A DNA stretch of 64,000 nt. It comes from an uncultured delta proteobacterium. Its GTDB lineage: Bacteria; Desulfobacterota; Binatia; Binatales; Binataceae. The notes under the pieces are model-generated. The model did no database searches and was not told the origin of the DNA. It saw nothing but the letters and a program-made list of their open reading frames with translations. Below are positions 1 to 6,258 of this stretch, one piece after another. Every line of letters begins with the position of its first letter. Positions within the stretch are counted from its first letter, which is position 1. The stretch spans positions 128,001 through 192,000 of the forward strand of contig CAWJET010000001.1 in NCBI GenBank assembly GCA_963842085.1, written 5' to 3'. The translations under genes and the position numbers were made by a program.

Positions 1-751
1 TATCAGGTGGGAGCGAAGCGTTCACCGCCGCTGGATGGAGTTTCACAAGGTGCGGCTCGATCATCGCTCGCAGCGCATCGCCCGCCGTGACATCCGCCGC
101 AATTTCGTGAAGCTCGAAAGGCGCACCCTCGCGATGCAGTCGCATGACGTATGCGCGATCTGCCTGGTTGGCTCGCGGCGTTAGTCCGACGATCCAGAAG
201 CCGGGCAGCTTTTTCGGAGCGCCGTAGCGAAGTCTTCTGTGCCAGAGAGCAGTCGCGCTCACGTCGGAACAGATCGGCCGCCGGCTCTCGATCGTCTCGG
301 CCGGATCGAGCGACACCGCCCCGGCGATCGTGACCGCCGGAGCTTCGTCCAGGATCATTTCGACGATCGTGCCGCCCTCGCCAACTCCGGCGACGATCGG
401 CGTCAGATATTTCGGGAACTTCCGCGTGCGCTGAAAATCTCGGCTGAGCCATTCCGCATCGAAAACCAGCTCGTGGCATTTCTCGTTAAGCTTATCGAGA
501 CGATTCAAATATTCCCGGCTATCGACCTCGGCTACCAGCGCTCCGCCTTTCGCTATCGCTTGTGCGGCGGCCTCGTCCGCTCTCGACCATTTCTTTCGTC
601 CGGAAAATAAAATTACGACACCGCGCGTCGGCCCCTGCGGCTCGACTATTTTGACGCTGCCGAGGCGGCCGGCATCGATCGCGTGGGCCGGCGAGACACC
701 GATGCAGCAGACGACCGCGATTGCCGCGAACCCGCGACCGAGTCCCGTCAT
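1..751 (-). CDS. AcvB/VirJ-family virulence factor (lysyl-PG hydrolase), runs off the window edge
   Basis: ATG at 751 overlaps the mprF stop (ATGA). Manual translation gives a signal peptide then VILFSG..W, LVAEVD, C-H-ELVFDAEWLSR, PIVAGVGEGG, typical of the VirJ N-terminus. Directly downstream of mprF. Confidence 0.8.
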   Translation of the reverse strand, partial: MTGLGRGFAAIAVVCCIGVSPAHAIDAGRLGSVKIVEPQGPTRGVVILFSGRKKWSRADEAAAQAIAKGGALVAEVDSREYLNRLDKLNEKCHELVFDAEWLSRDFQRTRKFPKYLTPIVAGVGEGGTIVEMILDEAPAVTIAGAVSLDPAETIESRRPICSDVSATALWHRRLRYGAPKKLPGFWIVGLTPRANQADRAYVMRLHREGAPFELHEIAADVTAGDALRAMIEPHLVKLHPAAVNASLPPD

Positions 752-3342
752 GCCGCCCTGGAACCCCGGCGGTGACCGTTGGCGAGCGCTGCCACGTCCG
801 CAAGACTGATGAATGGACCGATAGCGCCCGACGCCGCCAGGTAGCGAGGTTCCCAGACCGGACGGAACTTGTTCTTGAAGCTGCGCAGACCCCGAAAGTT
901 GTAGATCGCCCCGCCATGCTCCCATAGCAGGCCCGCAATCCGATGCCACCGCGACGAGAGCGGGGTCCGCGCTATCCCCGCCAGCGGCGCCATTCCCAGG
1001 CTCAGCATCCTGAAGTGCCGCGCTTTCAGCTCCAGCGCCAGTTGGGTGAACATGAACTCCATCGTGCAGGCGGGAGCGTCGGGCACCTGCCGCATAAGTC
1101 CAATCGTCGCCTCGCTTTGCATATCAGTCGTCATGAAGGTGACGAATGCCTGGGGCTTGCCATGCCGGCACGACAGCGCGGCCGATTGCGCCGCGATAAA
1201 CCGCGGCTCGAAGGCCGCCACCGAGAACCGCCGCTCTGCCGCGCTATGGGTGGCGAGCCAACTTTCCGAGATCTCACTCAAGACCCCATGCTGCTGGCCA
1301 ACGTTTTGCGGCGAAAGGATCTGAAACGTCAATCCCTCCCGTTCGCCGCGCTTCAACGCCTGGCGCAGTCCATAACGCTCGGAACCTTCCAGGCTGAATT
1401 GGTCCAGGTGGACGCAGGCCTCTTCGCCGACCTTGACGACTCTGAGCCCCGCGTCGAGATAGAGCGGCAGGTTGTCGGGATGCACCTGGTAAAAGGCCGC
1501 CCGGCCGCCGTGCTCGTCCGCTAGTTCCACGAAGCGCCAAACCAGTTCCGGCCATTCCTCGCACACCCCCACCGGGTCGAACAGCGCAACCCAGCTCCGG
1601 CCGCGCCTGGCGTACATCAGGAACGCGTTTCCCGAGCTGGAAAACAAAAAGCTTTTGTCACCCATTAACGCCAGCATCGGCGCGCTGCGATGCTGCCGGC
1701 GAATGATCGCCGCCGCGCGCGCCAGGTCATCCGCCGACGGCGGCTCGACCCGGCCGGGCGCCGCCTGCATCAACTGCCACAGCGAAATTCCCAGCGCAAA
1801 AATCGACGCTCCCAGGATAGCGCGCAACGATCTTGACGCCTGCGCATCGAACTCGAACTGCCACCATATCTCGTGCCGGTAGGGCACGTCGCGAAAGGCG
1901 AACAGCAGTATCCCGGTCGCGCCTGCCATAACCACGGCGATCGCGATGAACCAGCCCAGCCTGAACGGCTGATGCATGAACGCGGCCGGACGCGTGAACT
2001 CGCGCCGCGTCGCGAGCAGCAGCGCCAGCAGGAAGATAAGCGCAGCCGTCTCGCCGAAGGCCAACCCCTTGGCCAGGCTGAACCCGACGCTGGCCAGCGT
2101 GACCGTAAGCGCCAGCCACCACGCGCCGTCGAGCCGATGGTACAGGCCGCGCGCCACGAACAGCAGAAAGACGCCCGCCAGCGTTGCCAGCAGATGCGAG
2201 ATCTCCACCGCCCACAGCGGCAGAACCACTTGCAGCGCCGCCAACCGCCAATCCAGCGCCGGCGTCGCGCCCGACACGACCAGCATCGTGCCCACTGCAA
2301 ATGTGACTACGCTTAGAAATATCGGCGCCAGCAGTCCTGCTCCCAGCGCAACGCGTTCCGCCGCCTTCGAGCCAAAACGCCCGGTCGCGCTCCGGAGCTC
2401 GAATCCCGCCAGGATGGCCGCGGCCGCCAGCAGCGGCGCGATGAAATAGACGCCGCGATAGATCAGCAACGCCGCCGCTATCTCGTTGGACGGCACCAGC
2501 CTTCTGAGAGCCAGCAGGATGACGGCCTCGAACACTCCAAGCCCGCCGGGAATCCTGCTGATCACCCCCAGCGCCATTGCCGCCGAAAAGATTGCCGCAA
2601 AACTGAAAAAATCCACTCCTGCGCGCGGCAGCAGGAACCACAACGCGGCCGCGGCCGCCGCCAGATCGACAGTGCTCGCAAGGAAATGAAGCAGCGTATC
2701 CCGCAGCGAGGGCATCTCGAACGTGAGCTGCCCCAGCCTGACTGGCGCGCGCCGCCATGCGAGCGTCAGCGGCTCCGCAACGATTGCCAGCAGCGCCGCA
2801 GCCCCCGCGCATCGAAGCCAGATGATTGAGATTGGCACGATATGCCCGAGCGCGCCGCCCGCCAACATCACGCTCCCTGCCATGAACGCGCCGAGCCCAA
2901 TCGCGAATGCCACGTTGCCGAACAACGTCACGCGAGCGGTCTGCTCCGGCCGCACGCCGGCCGCGCCGTAAACCCGATCGCGAACCGCATCCGTCGTCAG
3001 CGCCCGCATGCCGACCGCGTTGCCGAGCGCCGATCCGCAGAACGAGGCAAGCAGCAGCACCGGCGTCGAAACCTTCACCCCCGCATAGCTCAACCCCAAC
3101 ATGTCGCGCGCGACCAGCGCAACGTAGCTCAGCACCGTCAGCGCGATGGAAATGAAGATGAGCTCGCGCGAGGTTCCGCGGATCGCGTGGATCACTCCGT
3201 GGTAATCCAACTGCCGCGACAAGGCTTGCAGAACGACCAGCAGAAGCGCGAACGCAACCAGCGCGGCAACTGGCCCGGCGATTCGTCGCGCGCCTTTCGC
3301 GCGGCCGACTCGGGAACGGTTGAACTGTGGCAGTCGGTACAC
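748..3342 (-). CDS. mprF: Bifunctional lysylphosphatidylglycerol flippase/synthetase MprF
   Basis: Many TM helices, IPGGLGVFE motif, and a C-terminal DUF2156 domain (LALMGDK, DPVG, LSLGMAPL, YNFRGLRSFKNKF.P.WEPRYL). Confidence 0.95.
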   Translation of the reverse strand: MYRLPQFNRSRVGRAKGARRIAGPVAALVAFALLLVVLQALSRQLDYHGVIHAIRGTSRELIFISIALTVLSYVALVARDMLGLSYAGVKVSTPVLLLASFCGSALGNAVGMRALTTDAVRDRVYGAAGVRPEQTARVTLFGNVAFAIGLGAFMAGSVMLAGGALGHIVPISIIWLRCAGAAALLAIVAEPLTLAWRRAPVRLGQLTFEMPSLRDTLLHFLASTVDLAAAAAALWFLLPRAGVDFFSFAAIFSAAMALGVISRIPGGLGVFEAVILLALRRLVPSNEIAAALLIYRGVYFIAPLLAAAAILAGFELRSATGRFGSKAAERVALGAGLLAPIFLSVVTFAVGTMLVVSGATPALDWRLAALQVVLPLWAVEISHLLATLAGVFLLFVARGLYHRLDGAWWLALTVTLASVGFSLAKGLAFGETAALIFLLALLLATRREFTRPAAFMHQPFRLGWFIAIAVVMAGATGILLFAFRDVPYRHEIWWQFEFDAQASRSLRAILGASIFALGISLWQLMQAAPGRVEPPSADDLARAAAIIRRQHRSAPMLALMGDKSFLFSSSGNAFLMYARRGRSWVALFDPVGVCEEWPELVWRFVELADEHGGRAAFYQVHPDNLPLYLDAGLRVVKVGEEACVHLDQFSLEGSERYGLRQALKRGEREGLTFQILSPQNVGQQHGVLSEISESWLATHSAAERRFSVAAFEPRFIAAQSAALSCRHGKPQAFVTFMTTDMQSEATIGLMRQVPDAPACTMEFMFTQLALELKARHFRMLSLGMAPLAGIARTPLSSRWHRIAGLLWEHGGAIYNFRGLRSFKNKFRPVWEPRYLAASGAIGPFISLADVAALANGHRRGSRAA

Positions 3343-3562
3343 GTGCAGTAGGGGTCGCCGCCTCCCTTCTTTTCAGCTCAAGCGCCCGGCGCAGATATTG
3401 GAAAGGCGCAACCAGCGGTTATTCTCGCATTTTGCCCCGCCCCCCGACAAATGAGCAGTTTATGAAGCTCGCCCGTGCTACGACAAAGCCCGGCTCACTC
3501 TCGCTGCCGCTCTTCCATCGCCAGCCCACGCAAGCCGGCGTGATCGTTCGTTTCGGGTCGGC

Positions 3563-3568
3563 TATAAT
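3563..3568 (+). promoter_or_regulatory. Candidate sigma70 -10 box upstream of the rhodanese-channel gene
   Basis: Perfect TATAAT 25 nt upstream of ATG 3594; the -35 element is weak. Confidence 0.3.
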
Positions 3569-3593
3569 TTTGGACGCTCGCGGCGCTGAAATC

Positions 3594-4862
3594 ATGGCTT
3601 CCGAACTCAACGCCACCGCCGACGCATCCGCCACACGTGAGATCTCCCGCGAGGAGCTCCGGCGCCGGCTGCACGATTCTTCGCTCACAATCGTGGACGT
3701 CTTACCCGAAGCGTCGTACGTCGGGGCGCACATCCCGGGCGCACTGAGCCTTCCGCTCGAGCAGATTGCCAGTCGCGCGCACGAACTCCTTCCCGACCCC
3801 GCCGCCGAGCTCGCCGTCTATTGCGGCAAATTCACGTGAACTCGCGCTCAGGAGGCGGTCGCCTCGCTCCATGCACTCGGTTACACGAACGTTCGCCACT
3901 ATAGCGGAGGCATCGCCGACTGGGTCGAGTCGGGCGAACTGACGGAGCGCGTGGCTGAAGCCGCCGCCGCGGACTCGAATCCGGAGCAATCGGTGGTGGC
4001 CGGCCCTCCGCTCACGGTGTCGCCGGATGGAGCGATTGGCCGCGGTCCCGCGCGCGTCTCCCGGATGCGTCGATTCGACAACTCGGTACTGGACCTGATC
4101 CAGCGACGGTCCGCCTTGCAACTCTTTCTCATCTGGATGGGAATGATCGCGCTGTGCGGTGTCGGCTACTGGCTTGGTGCGCTGATGGGCGAGCACGGGC
4201 TGGTCGAGGCGGGCCACCCGCTTGCCGCCGATCTCAACGGCCTGGCGAGCGCGCTCTACTTCAGCTTCGTGACCGCGACCTCCGTCGGTTATGGCGACAT
4301 CGTACCGGTCGGAATGGCGCGCGCGCTCGCGGTCGCCGAGGCCGTCACCGCGCTGCTTATTTTCGGCGCGGTCGTCGCCAAGTTCGTCTCGCATCGGCAG
4401 GAAGAGTTGGTGAGCGAAATCCACCGCGTCACGTTTGAAGAACGGCTCGATCGCGTTCAGACCAACCTGCACATGGTGATTTCGGAACTGCTTTCGATCT
4501 CAGCAATGTGCGAAGCGAAGTCGCCGCTGAATCGAATCAGCACCCGGCTGGAAAGCGCCGCGCTGCTGTTCCTCGGTGAGTTGCGTACCACCCGCGATCT
4601 GCTCTATCAGCCGCGGCTGGTCGTCGAGGAAGGCGTCTTGGCCGGGATTCTCGCCACCCTCACCTCGGCGCTCAGCGTGCTGGCCGACCTCCTCGCATGC
4701 CTGCCGCAGGAATTCTCGCGCTCGCAGCCGTTGGAGATTTCGCTCCAGAACCTGACGCGTCTCGCGCGGGACATTTGCGGCGAATGCGTCCCCCACTCCT
4801 ACACGCCCAGGCTCGTCTTCTGGATGGATCGGATCCACGCGACGGCGAATCGAATCAAGTAA
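3594..4862 (+). CDS. Predicted selenoprotein: rhodanese domain (C-x4-U) fused to a 2-TM K+ channel (Ion_trans_2)
   Basis: ORFs 3327..3839 and 3951..4862 are in the same frame, separated only by TGA 3837-3839. Read-through gives DVLP..Y...HIPGA..LP...AVYCGKFT-U-TRAQEAVASLHALGYTNVRHYSGGIADW, a complete rhodanese fold, followed by a pore domain with YFSFVTATSVGYGDIVP. Confidence 0.85.
3837..3870 (+). promoter_or_regulatory. Bacterial SECIS-like hairpin
   Basis: After the UGA: stem GAGGC (3852-3856), loop GGUC (3857-3860), stem GCCUC (3861-3865). The loop starts with G after a 17-nt spacer from the UGA. Confidence 0.7.
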
Positions 4863-4929: not shown

Positions 4930-6258
4930 TCAGCGCAGCCGCGAGCGTCGAACCTTGAGTACGGGCAACAGCATCGAAGGATAGTCCGGCGACCCGTCGA
5001 AATGCGGCGATCTTATCGGCGGTCGATACTCGAGCGGGAAGGTCGTGACCAACGGCCTGCTGAATACATCGGCGTGACTCACAACGATGACGAAGCGCAG
5101 CGACAAGTTGAACTGCCGGACCTCGTCAAGCGTCTGAAGTGGCAGACGCAAGCCGAAGCAAAAACATTCCGCCTGCTCTCCGCCACCGATGACCGTGGCC
5201 CGAGTGCTTCCATCCGCGGTGCTGACGGTAGTTAGTTTCGAATCTGTATTTTTGACCGCGCCCCTGCCGAGCAGCATCCGCACCCGGATTCGGCGGACGA
5301 TGCCGATGCCTTTGCCGCGATTGCGCAACATGAACCTGAGCATGATGTTGGCGACGTTGCTGGAACCTGCGCCCGCGTACCTTAATGGTTCTAGCGCGAT
5401 GTTTTCTCCCATCGTTCGAGCAGCGAGCGTCGTCGGCAGCGGTAGCGACAGCTCGATCTCCTGCTCTTCGACAAACAGGTGCGGTCGTTGCGCGTTGAGC
5501 ACGAGAGTCGTCACCTCGATACTCTCGCGCGCGGTTGTTTGCGCCGCCTCCGCTATCTCATTTTGCTTTCGACTGAAGTCCGCGAGCCAGCCGGCCGCGA
5601 GAGCAGTCCGTTCGACGCTCCGGCGCGCGGACGCTTCCGCCGCCTCGGCCAACTCCTTCTGCTGACGACTGAAATCACCTAGCAAGCCGGTGGCAAGAGT
5701 AGTGAGTTCCACGCTCTGGCGCGCGATTGTTTGCGCCGCGTCCGCTATATCATTTTGTTTGCGACTGAAATTCTGGAGCAAACCCGCGGCGAGAGTTGTC
5801 ACTTCGATGCTCTGGCGCGCGATTGTCCTGACCGCCTCAGCCATCTCTTTTTGTTTGGGACTAAGATCTCGCAGCAAGCCCGCAACCAGAGTCGTGAGTT
5901 CGACGCTCTCGCGCGCAATCGTTTCGGCCGCTTCCGCCAACTTTTTTTGCTTACGACCGAAGTCCCAGACCAACCCTGCCAGGATGGCGACCAGAACCGC
6001 GGTCAATACCGTCGCTATCTCTCCGGCAATTCTCCATCGCCCCTCGGGCGGATTCGCTGGAGCAGCGTAGCTGAAAGTCCCGTAGTAGTTGTAAGGTTTG
6101 TCAACCGTGACCGCGTGCGCTTTCTCTGCAGGCCCTGGTCCGGCGGGCGTCGCCGATGGACCGCTGCTCGGCACGCCGCTGGCGCTTACATGCGCGGCGC
6201 TTGGGAGTAAGAGCAGCGCAATCAAAATCAACGCCAACCATGGCTTCCAGTGCTTCAT
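4930..6258 (-). CDS. Membrane-anchored hypothetical protein with a 32-aa tandem helical repeat stalk
   Basis: Signal peptide, one TM segment (IATVLTAVLVAILAGLVW), about 5 repeats of FSRKQxExAEAAxTIARxSxExTTLxxGLLxD, then a beta-rich C-terminal domain. Confidence 0.75.
   Translation of the reverse strand: MKHWKPWLALILIALLLLPSAAHVSASGVPSSGPSATPAGPGPAEKAHAVTVDKPYNYYGTFSYAAPANPPEGRWRIAGEIATVLTAVLVAILAGLVWDFGRKQKKLAEAAETIARESVELTTLVAGLLRDLSPKQKEMAEAVRTIARQSIEVTTLAAGLLQNFSRKQNDIADAAQTIARQSVELTTLATGLLGDFSRQQKELAEAAEASARRSVERTALAAGWLADFSRKQNEIAEAAQTTARESIEVTTLVLNAQRPHLFVEEQEIELSLPLPTTLAARTMGENIALEPLRYAGAGSSNVANIMLRFMLRNRGKGIGIVRRIRVRMLLGRGAVKNTDSKLTTVSTADGSTRATVIGGGEQAECFCFGLRLPLQTLDEVRQFNLSLRFVIVVSHADVFSRPLVTTFPLEYRPPIRSPHFDGSPDYPSMLLPVLKVRRSRLR
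5500..5965 (-). repeat. 96-bp intragenic tandem repeat (about 5 units)
   Basis: The motif gactgaa(g/a) and variants recur at about 5571, 5667, 5763, 5859 and 5955 (period 96). Confidence 0.85.

Follow-up and report, generated by a model that had tools for sequence, protein, structure and literature searches.

The two-helix K+ channel KcsA has the selectivity filter TTVGYGD, and its ligand-gated two-helix relatives MthK and Kch carry cytoplasmic RCK domains. KefB and KefC, which carry out glutathione-gated K+ efflux, are CPA2 transporters with a KTN domain; their ligand is a glutathione adduct and they contain no selenocysteine (Sec). Sulfurtransferases feature a six-residue catalytic loop with the motif CRxGx[R/T]. 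Rhodaneses that contain Sec are tabulated in a 2026 review as forms 1-5, with the motifs UxxS, UxxG, CxU, UxxG and UxxxxU, the last of which belongs to the rhodanese/DsbD fusion TsoB (PMC13188914). The available part of this review lists several Sec-containing transporter subunits and no ion channel among the membrane-transport selenoproteins of its table, its table holds no C-x4-U rhodanese, and the word "channel" is absent from that part of its text (PMC13188914). The gene described here lies at positions 3594-4862 of a 64,000-nucleotide stretch (the window, positions 128,001 to 192,000 of contig CAWJET010000001.1) from an uncultured bacterium of the Binataceae. Its predicted product is almost certainly a 422-residue selenoprotein in which UGA-82 is decoded by SelB and tRNA-Sec via a hairpin at 3850-3868, and which combines a rhodanese domain containing a Cys77-x4-Sec82 pair with a KcsA-type pore and a CxxC domain.

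A single reading frame with one TGA

Positions 3594-4862 form a single forward frame that opens with ATG at 3594, closes with TAA at 4860-4862, and has its only in-frame TGA at codon 82. The start is placed at this ATG on the basis of a conserved N-terminus (MAS...) and a stop just 5' of the start in many orthologues. The open reading frame listing made with genetic code table 11 breaks the frame into 3327-3839 and 3951-4862. When the TGA is read through, the peptide runs ...AVYCGKFT-U-TRAQEAVASLHALGYTNVRHYSGGIADW... and further on ...YFSFVTATSVGYGD..., and Pfam finds Rhodanese at residues 19-112 and Ion_trans_2 at residues 216-265 (E 1.9e-12), so that the rhodanese domain spans the TGA. An earlier reading of the window, made from its letters (the sequence-only reading), had reported that one frame was split at a single TGA and then ran without stops from a rhodanese into a two-helix channel with the filter TSVGYGD. 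Both statements are borne out by the translation and by Pfam, all sequence details given there are correct, and the feature is real. The features of the gene are listed below.

3594..4862 (+), whole gene with one TGA read through, 422 codons plus TAA
3648..3929 (+), rhodanese-like domain, residues 19-112, predicted cytoplasmic; PF00581, E 1.3e-15; predicted local distance difference test (pLDDT) 83-90 in the AlphaFold2 (AF2) model
3822..3839 (+), active-site loop C77-G-K-F-T-U82; C77 is at 3822-3824, at the end of strand 72-76, and U82 is immediately before helix 83-94
3837..3839 (+), TGA read as Sec (predicted), residue 82; TGA in 65 of 80 related loci and TGC or TGT in 12
3850..3868 (+), hairpin resembling a selenocysteine insertion sequence (SECIS); stem 3852-3856 with 3861-3865, loop GGUC at 3857-3860, bulged G at 3866, pairs 3850-3851 with 3867-3868
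4113..4184 (+), outer transmembrane helix, residues 174-197, from the AF2 model
4233..4298 (+), pore helix and selectivity filter, T229-S-V-G-Y-G-D235 at 4278-4298
4317..4397 (+), inner transmembrane helix, from residue 242; one long helix on to residue 307 in the AF2 model
4401..4859 (+), C-terminal helical domain, residues 270-422, predicted cytoplasmic, from the AF2 model; no Pfam family
4776..4787 (+), C395-G-E-C398 (CxxC) between the last two helices, conserved without exception in alignments of 48 and 13 proteins

Sixty relatives, 36 of the same genus and 24 of other genera within the class, were searched in six frames, and the full-length gene turned up in 22 of the former and in none of the latter; the same-genus survey counts include two unpublished genomes (G018 and G023), and no conclusion rests on either. 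The aligned codon is readable in 18 same-genus loci, where it is TGA in 14 and TGC in 4. Additionally, a copy at a contig end carries TGA, and another, whose frame is broken, carries Cys. A wider set of 80 loci was obtained with patterns from a 48-row alignment (A1), one genome per species, and here the codon is TGA in 65, TGC in 8, TGT in 4, ACG in 1, TCG in 1, unaligned in 1 and TGG in none. The two codon counts are not independent because the wider set includes same-genus genomes. Two of the four TGT loci are unusable (one is a frameshifted copy, the other is truncated and misaligned), which leaves 10 of the 12 Cys loci intact and well aligned. Peptide identity among the relatives is 38-79% on both sides of the TGA, and the peptide that follows it (…LGY.NV..Y.GG…W) is kept in all TGA loci. 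A TGA at exactly codon 82 in 65 of 80 loci, with the peptide kept on either side, is far beyond chance. The full-length proteins in the databases (~421 residues) have Cys at position 82 in 45 of 47 aligned cases and Trp in the other 2, and nearly every family member has Sec or Cys at position 82. The homologues that the sequence-only reading had asked for, full-length rhodanese-channel proteins with either Cys or a conserved TGA at this position, therefore exist. An in-frame UGA with coding conservation on both sides and homologues with Cys aligned to it are both found, and TGA-82 very probably encodes Sec. The same reading had also named sequencing error as a possible flaw. Four public DNA runs, which come from two studies and one of which is possibly the source of the assembly itself, have contigs without any other letter at 3837-3839, and strain differences occur elsewhere in the gene.

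Decayed copies of the gene were observed as well. One (L080, the same as L034 and G032) has TGT at the site and a frame that is broken soon after; another (L082) codes for Thr there and is missing the remainder of the rhodanese domain. Two database proteins, P0024 and P0080, have Trp at the Sec position (CGKFTW), which is probably the result of a gene call under a code with TGA as Trp. The recoding of TGA as Trp that these two proteins suggest was considered and rejected, as TGG is found in none of the 80 loci and TGA is the commonest stop of the host genome, where 501 of the 965 open frames that are 500 codons or longer terminate in it. This excludes a general reassignment of TGA.

The TGA is followed after 12 nucleotides (nt) by GAGGC-GGUC-GCCUC (3852-3865), a hairpin that is extended by two pairs across a bulged G. 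GGUC is also the loop of the E. coli fdhF SECIS. The sequence-only reading had placed this hairpin at bacterial SECIS spacing, and the spacing holds. The bacterial SECIS model given in the available part of PMC13188914 calls for a loop of 3-9 nt whose first two positions feature G, an upper stem of 4-16 base pairs, a distance of 16-37 nt from the UGA to the loop and a minimum free energy of at most -7.5 kcal/mol. With a 4-nt loop starting with GG, a 5-base-pair upper stem, a UGA-to-loop distance of 17 nt and an energy of -8.8 kcal/mol, the window hairpin falls within all four constraints (PMC13188914). Comparison was made among 66 TGA forms (64 of them distinct), with columns numbered after the TGA. 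Helix columns 14-20 are paired with 26-32 at 87.1% in these forms, versus 28-49% (maximum 49.1%) when the partner is slid, and none of 500 shuffles attains the observed pairing or covariation score. G18, G19, C20 and G22 never vary, and the conservation of U23 is 90% or more. Two registers of the hairpin occur, one with a 5-nt loop and one with a 4-nt loop and a bulged base, and these are set by whether codon 90 is GGC, CGC or AGC, or is GCC. Conservation of third codon positions is 0.93 within the stem versus 0.57 outside it. In the 14 same-genus Sec forms, synonymous differences in the codons right after the TGA are 0.086-0.098 versus 0.318 gene-wide, and these windows rank 4th and 5th lowest of the gene. 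At these columns the ten intact Cys forms reach 55.7% pairing, and one of the ten has GU in the loop.

The host genome (two contigs, 4.93 Mb, 61.5% G+C) carries selA, selB, selD and a tRNA-Sec with the anticodon TCA, so the set of selA, selB, selC and selD that the sequence-only reading had proposed to look for is complete. The selD gene itself has one in-frame TGA, in the motif CKAAGUAGK, and adjoins selB (G000:C1:2099530-2100456 (-) and 2100611-2102506 (-); also L010). ARAGORN found no tRNA at the selB locus; the tRNA-Sec is located elsewhere in the genome. Among the same-genus relatives with the TGA form, selA is present in 16 of 17, and the exception is only 64% complete. None of the six same-genus genomes without selA, which are 82-98% complete, has a copy of the gene. 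Additionally, selA is present in 4 of 5 distant genomes with the TGA form. In G012, G025, G028, G037 and G039, selA was matched as two adjacent pieces or as pieces at contig ends, which are frameshifts or assembly breaks.

Domains, relatives and surroundings

The loop of the rhodanese domain reads V-Y-C77-G-K-F-T-U82-T-R in context. C77 occupies the position of the canonical rhodanese catalytic Cys and does not vary in either of two alignments (48 of 48 and 13 of 13 proteins). The best Foldseek and phmmer matches of the N-terminal part in the PDB are rhodaneses (6mxv, 3tp9, 3nhv and 1yt8), and Foldseek superposes it on solved rhodaneses with a root-mean-square deviation of 1.4-2.0 over ~105 columns. 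The Cys that marks the rhodanese fold, at the end of the central strand and ahead of the active-site loop, is present. The six-residue catalytic loop of the sulfurtransferases is not found, and Sec or Cys is at loop position 6. The sequence-only reading had put the TGA where Cys-x4-Cys rhodaneses have their second Cys, and the homologues of the Cys form do read C-x4-C at this loop. The predicted Sec is thus at the second residue of the pair, not at the canonical catalytic C77.

The filter of the pore domain reads T-A-T-S-V-G-Y-G-D. Residues 203-265 match KcsA chains in phmmer with E-values of ~1e-5, and a pore helix and a T-x-G-Y-G-D filter lie between two transmembrane helices, as in two-helix K+ channels. 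The K+ signature TATS[VI]GYGD is kept in most relatives examined, including all 48 rows of A1, in which G232, Y233, G234 and D235 are invariant. The CxxC of the C-terminal domain is present in every distant relative examined, and the His that follows it is not invariant (38 of 48). Residues 270-422 match no Pfam family and gave no usable protein-atlas match, and Pfam and NCBIfam scans of the protein found no RCK, CNBD or other known gating domain. The AF2 model, which was built from 48 sequences, has a mean pLDDT of 79.7 and a predicted template modelling score (pTM) of 0.45. It features a rhodanese fold, a linker with pLDDT below 50 at residues 122-134 and 157-163, and four more helices after the inner helix. 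By analogy with KcsA-type channels, the N- and C-terminal domains would both be cytoplasmic.

A further observation concerns the end of the inner helix. The strongest synonymous dip of the gene is at codons 260-273 (4371-4415), with 0.07 versus 0.318. A Shine-Dalgarno-like AGGAAGAG followed by GTG or ATG at codon 273 is found in 35 of the 69 loci with the motif, the window included, and mostly in the Binatus clade. In MthK and Kch a soluble C-terminal domain is made from an internal start. Codon 273 could likewise be such a start; the conserved peptide would explain the dip equally well.

A scan of 1.84 billion cluster representatives returned 105 proteins at E-values up to 1e-30, and the best 85 of the 105 were aligned. 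Of these, 42 begin within the rhodanese domain right after the loop, 11 have a complete rhodanese with C-x4-C, one has C-x4-G, one has C-x4-S, and the remaining 30 are fragmentary. Pfam matches Ion_trans_2 in 77 of the 85, Rhodanese in 14 and AhpC-TSA in 2, and no other N-terminal domain was seen in place of the rhodanese among the 85. Judged from the alignment, a start just past the loop is the signature of a gene call truncated at the TGA. Similarly, 53 of the 120 database matches listed are "channel-only" proteins of 289-342 residues, as public gene calls cut the Sec forms to ~330 residues; the three of them that were examined (P0021, P0060 and P0065) start after the TGA. Since 42 of the best 85 of 105 representatives start inside the rhodanese domain, both the fusion and its selenium dependence are invisible in annotations. 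The sequence-only reading would have been contradicted by homologues that always encode rhodanese and channel separately, and the opposite was found: the two are always in one frame, and each seemingly separate channel protein examined starts inside the rhodanese domain. One lineage (P0139, of 565 residues, P0140, P0189 and P0246) has C-x4-C, a degenerate filter (SSYGD or ASYGD) and a C-terminal AhpC/TSA peroxiredoxin domain, which in P0139 is matched with E 2.8e-25.

The depositors of the TGA forms label them as Candidatus Binatus/Binataceae, Acidobacteriota (Vicinamibacterales, Thermoanaerobaculia and Holophagales), Planctomycetota, Candidatus Eisenbacteria and Krumholzibacteriia; these are labels on metagenome-assembled genomes, some of which are possibly mis-binned. 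An unrooted maximum-likelihood tree was computed from 77 rows, four others having been left out (two because their frames were broken, two because they did not align); it does not include the distant C-x4-C proteins. Sec forms are spread over the whole tree, and Cys forms are confined to three nested clades made up of seven rows of the Binatus group, one pair and a single row. The tree also holds one Ser form, and a minimum of 4 changes is needed. Within the sampled part of this unrooted tree, Sec is the widespread and probably the older state, and the topology suggests at least three separate replacements of Sec by Cys.

Another selenoprotein candidate of the host genome shares the C-x4-U loop, here as VVVYCRDSLU (G000:C2:241315-241650 (-); L043:590-1324 (-)). 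It is a 245-residue rhodanese with a weak CBS match (E 0.0011) and a strong hairpin at similar spacing past the TGA, and many relatives have a 40%-identical match carrying one TGA.

The genes around the channel gene are not shared with orthologous loci, with the exception of one downstream gene in L018. Upstream and divergent from it at 748-3342 (-) is an MprF-like lysyl-phosphatidylglycerol synthase (LPG_synthase_C, E 5.2e-85), which is not conserved beside the channel gene in orthologous loci. Downstream at 4930-6258 (-) is a 442-residue protein without a Pfam match that has several ~40-residue repeats (…AEAA.TIAR.S.E.TTL..GLL.DFSRKQ…), and this is the gene common only to L018. Clustering of the flanks of the 80 loci found a conserved neighbour only within a Binatus subclade, where a PhaC-like alpha/beta hydrolase is upstream, and none that is conserved across phyla. 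No operon partner is therefore proposed, and the sensing is probably built into the protein.

Proposed function and alternative explanations

If the identity of the protein is as stated, the chance that the Cys77/Sec82 pair acts as a switch coupling redox or sulfane-sulfur state to K+ gating is put at even or slightly better. The proposal draws on the invariance of C77, C395 and C398 and on position 82 being Sec or Cys in nearly all members. The rhodanese domain would be a sensor and not an enzyme in its own right. Through the action of oxidants or sulfane sulfur (persulfide, polysulfide), the Cys77 thiol and the Sec82 selenol would become a selenylsulfide or a sulfur-bridged form, and the resulting change in the loop and in the helix from residue 83 would be relayed via the linker to the gate at the inner helix. 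An exchange between Cys77/Sec82 and the C-terminal CxxC may also take place. K+ flux, and hence membrane potential or cytoplasmic pH, would then follow the redox or sulfur state. Compared with Cys, Sec would make the switch faster, more readily reversed and less prone to over-oxidation. A redox or sulfane-sulfur signal is favoured because of the peroxiredoxin-fused relatives, the position of Sec at the N-terminus of a helix in the model and the lack of a conserved partner gene. Taken as a whole, identity and switch together form the best explanation, with somewhat more confidence than doubt attached to it.

Several findings weigh against it. Gly, Ser or Thr is at position 82 in three members (P0127, P0134/L122 and L082) that keep the CxxC, so the Cys/Sec pair is not indispensable. 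The HMMER alignment to 6mxv has a two-residue insertion in the loop (ycgkftctra versus ycgsg--frsa), and a loop two residues longer than in solved rhodaneses means that ordinary sulfurtransferase chemistry is not to be assumed. The arrangement of the domains in the AF2 model is uncertain at its pTM of 0.45. With regard to the hairpin, a 64-nt stretch folded alone has a z-score of 0.55, with 134 of 200 shuffles at least as stable, and an Rfam scan of 3780-3960 at E-values up to 10 had 0 matches. The single-sequence energy lies within the range of the shuffles, so the support for the hairpin is from comparison and not from energy. In that comparison, changes on both sides occur at just 3 of the 7 helix pairs, in 9 cells, and true compensation is scarce. 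The conservation of the hairpin could in principle come largely from the conserved peptide Q/E-A-V-G/A-L-L, but the fixed third positions argue otherwise. Finally, selA was not found in the distant TGA-form genome G063, the completeness of which is not stated.

There are three alternatives to be considered. TGA-82 might not encode Sec and instead be a true stop, which would make two genes or a pseudogene of the frame, a sequencing error, or a codon for Trp or another residue. Gene callers do split the frame, P0024 and P0080 have Trp at the site, and the energy of the hairpin as a single sequence is unremarkable. However, a stop at this codon would cut the rhodanese fold mid-way, TGA is present in loci of several phyla with Cys and never TGG as the alternative, and the conserved hairpin and the constrained synonymous sites are seen only in the TGA forms. 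Together with the full Sec machinery, the use of TGA as the main stop and the recurrence of the same TGA in independent contigs, this leaves the idea very improbable. The same selenoprotein channel might also be gated not by redox chemistry but by a thiophilic metal or metalloid (Cu+, Hg2+, Cd2+, Zn2+ or As(III)) bound at Cys77/Sec82, perhaps with C395 and C398 as further ligands. Each subunit would offer four conserved chalcogen ligands for this purpose; on the other hand, the gene has no conserved metal-resistance genes next to it, the His that follows the CxxC varies, and a peroxiredoxin, indicative of peroxide or thiol chemistry, is the sole extra domain found in fusions among the relatives. 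Metal gating is considered unlikely.

A working sulfur- or selenium-transferase anchored at the membrane, with the pore domain as an anchor or as an exit for a product anion (a role that has been proposed for E. coli YgaP) and not as a gated K+ channel, would account for the invariant canonical C77 and the intact rhodanese fold. A membrane rhodanese with two transmembrane helices exists in YgaP, according to the available part of PMC4730233. The degenerate filter of the peroxiredoxin-fused lineage is in line with such an enzyme, as it means that K+ selectivity is dispensable there. Against it, most relatives examined, and every row of A1, keep TATS[VI]GYGD, Ion_trans_2 is matched in 77 of the best 85 of 105 representatives, and the pore aligns to KcsA. 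Additionally, the length of the loop is atypical and no substrate-pathway genes are linked to the gene. An anchored transferase is considered somewhat less probable than metal gating, and both are serious alternatives. The channel with a Cys77/Sec82 redox or sulfane-sulfur switch is the explanation carried into the comparison below.

Comparison with known systems

Full-text literature searches turned up neither an ion channel that contains Sec nor a fusion of a rhodanese with a K+ channel, although a mention in the source of TsoB (Haft & Tolstoy 2025, mSystems) remains possible; the 2026 review, which tabulates the families of that source, includes none of this kind. A paper on deep-Sep (PMC12013277) has 0 occurrences of "channel", "rhodanese" and "potassium". 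The protein may tentatively be regarded as the first selenoprotein ion channel, a Cys-Sec-gated K+ channel through which K+ flux and membrane potential would depend on peroxide, sulfane-sulfur or possibly selenium status, in which Sec is, on the sampled tree, probably older than Cys and which has been hidden by gene callers. Sec in the built-in sensor of a channel would extend the known uses of selenium to the control of ion flux, and the rhodanese would add a new class of sensor domain to the prokaryotic K+ channels. The paired occurrence of Sec and Cys forms offers a simple natural system in which to ask what Sec does better in a switch. The hosts are uncultured bacteria known from metagenomes of soil and sediment, habitats with fluctuating redox and sulfur conditions. 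The fusion of Sec rhodanese and K+ channel, conserved in many soil bacteria, suggests that these cells tie K+ flow to redox or sulfur state.

Sec-rhodaneses had been called an established selenoprotein family in the sequence-only reading. This holds to the extent that such families are listed in the available part of PMC13188914; the listed families have other motifs, so the present protein is not a member of them. In NCBIfam release 20 no model passed its cut-off, with 32.1 versus 805 bits for TsoB (NF045694) and 28.5 versus 115 bits for the LYCAU type (NF041203). Of the listed forms, TsoB and the LYCAU type are the closest. TsoB resembles the present protein in its Sec rhodanese fold, in the x4 spacing between two chalcogen residues and in its fusion to a membrane domain, and the LYCAU type (CxU) resembles it in pairing the catalytic Cys with a nearby Sec. 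The present protein differs from both in its C-x4-U order, with Cys first and a single Sec second, and in having a K+ pore as partner. E. coli YgaP, the structure of which (5hbo) is among the Foldseek matches, also joins a cytoplasmic rhodanese domain to two transmembrane helices; however, it has a single rhodanese Cys and no Sec, its helices do not form a K+ pore, and it is a dimer, as described in the available part of PMC4730233.

The outer helix, pore helix, GYGD filter and inner helix are shared with KcsA-type channels, and the filter TSVGYGD differs from that of KcsA at one residue. The difference from KcsA-type and ligand-gated channels is in the sensor, which would consist of an N-terminal Sec rhodanese and an unclassified helical domain with a CxxC. 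KefB and KefC resemble the proposed switch in that thiol or electrophile chemistry controls their K+ flux and so protects the cell, but they belong to an unrelated family and have no intrinsic Cys/Sec pair. What is new is that a Sec-bearing domain and a pore, each of a known kind, are combined, and this combination is widespread and systematically mis-annotated.

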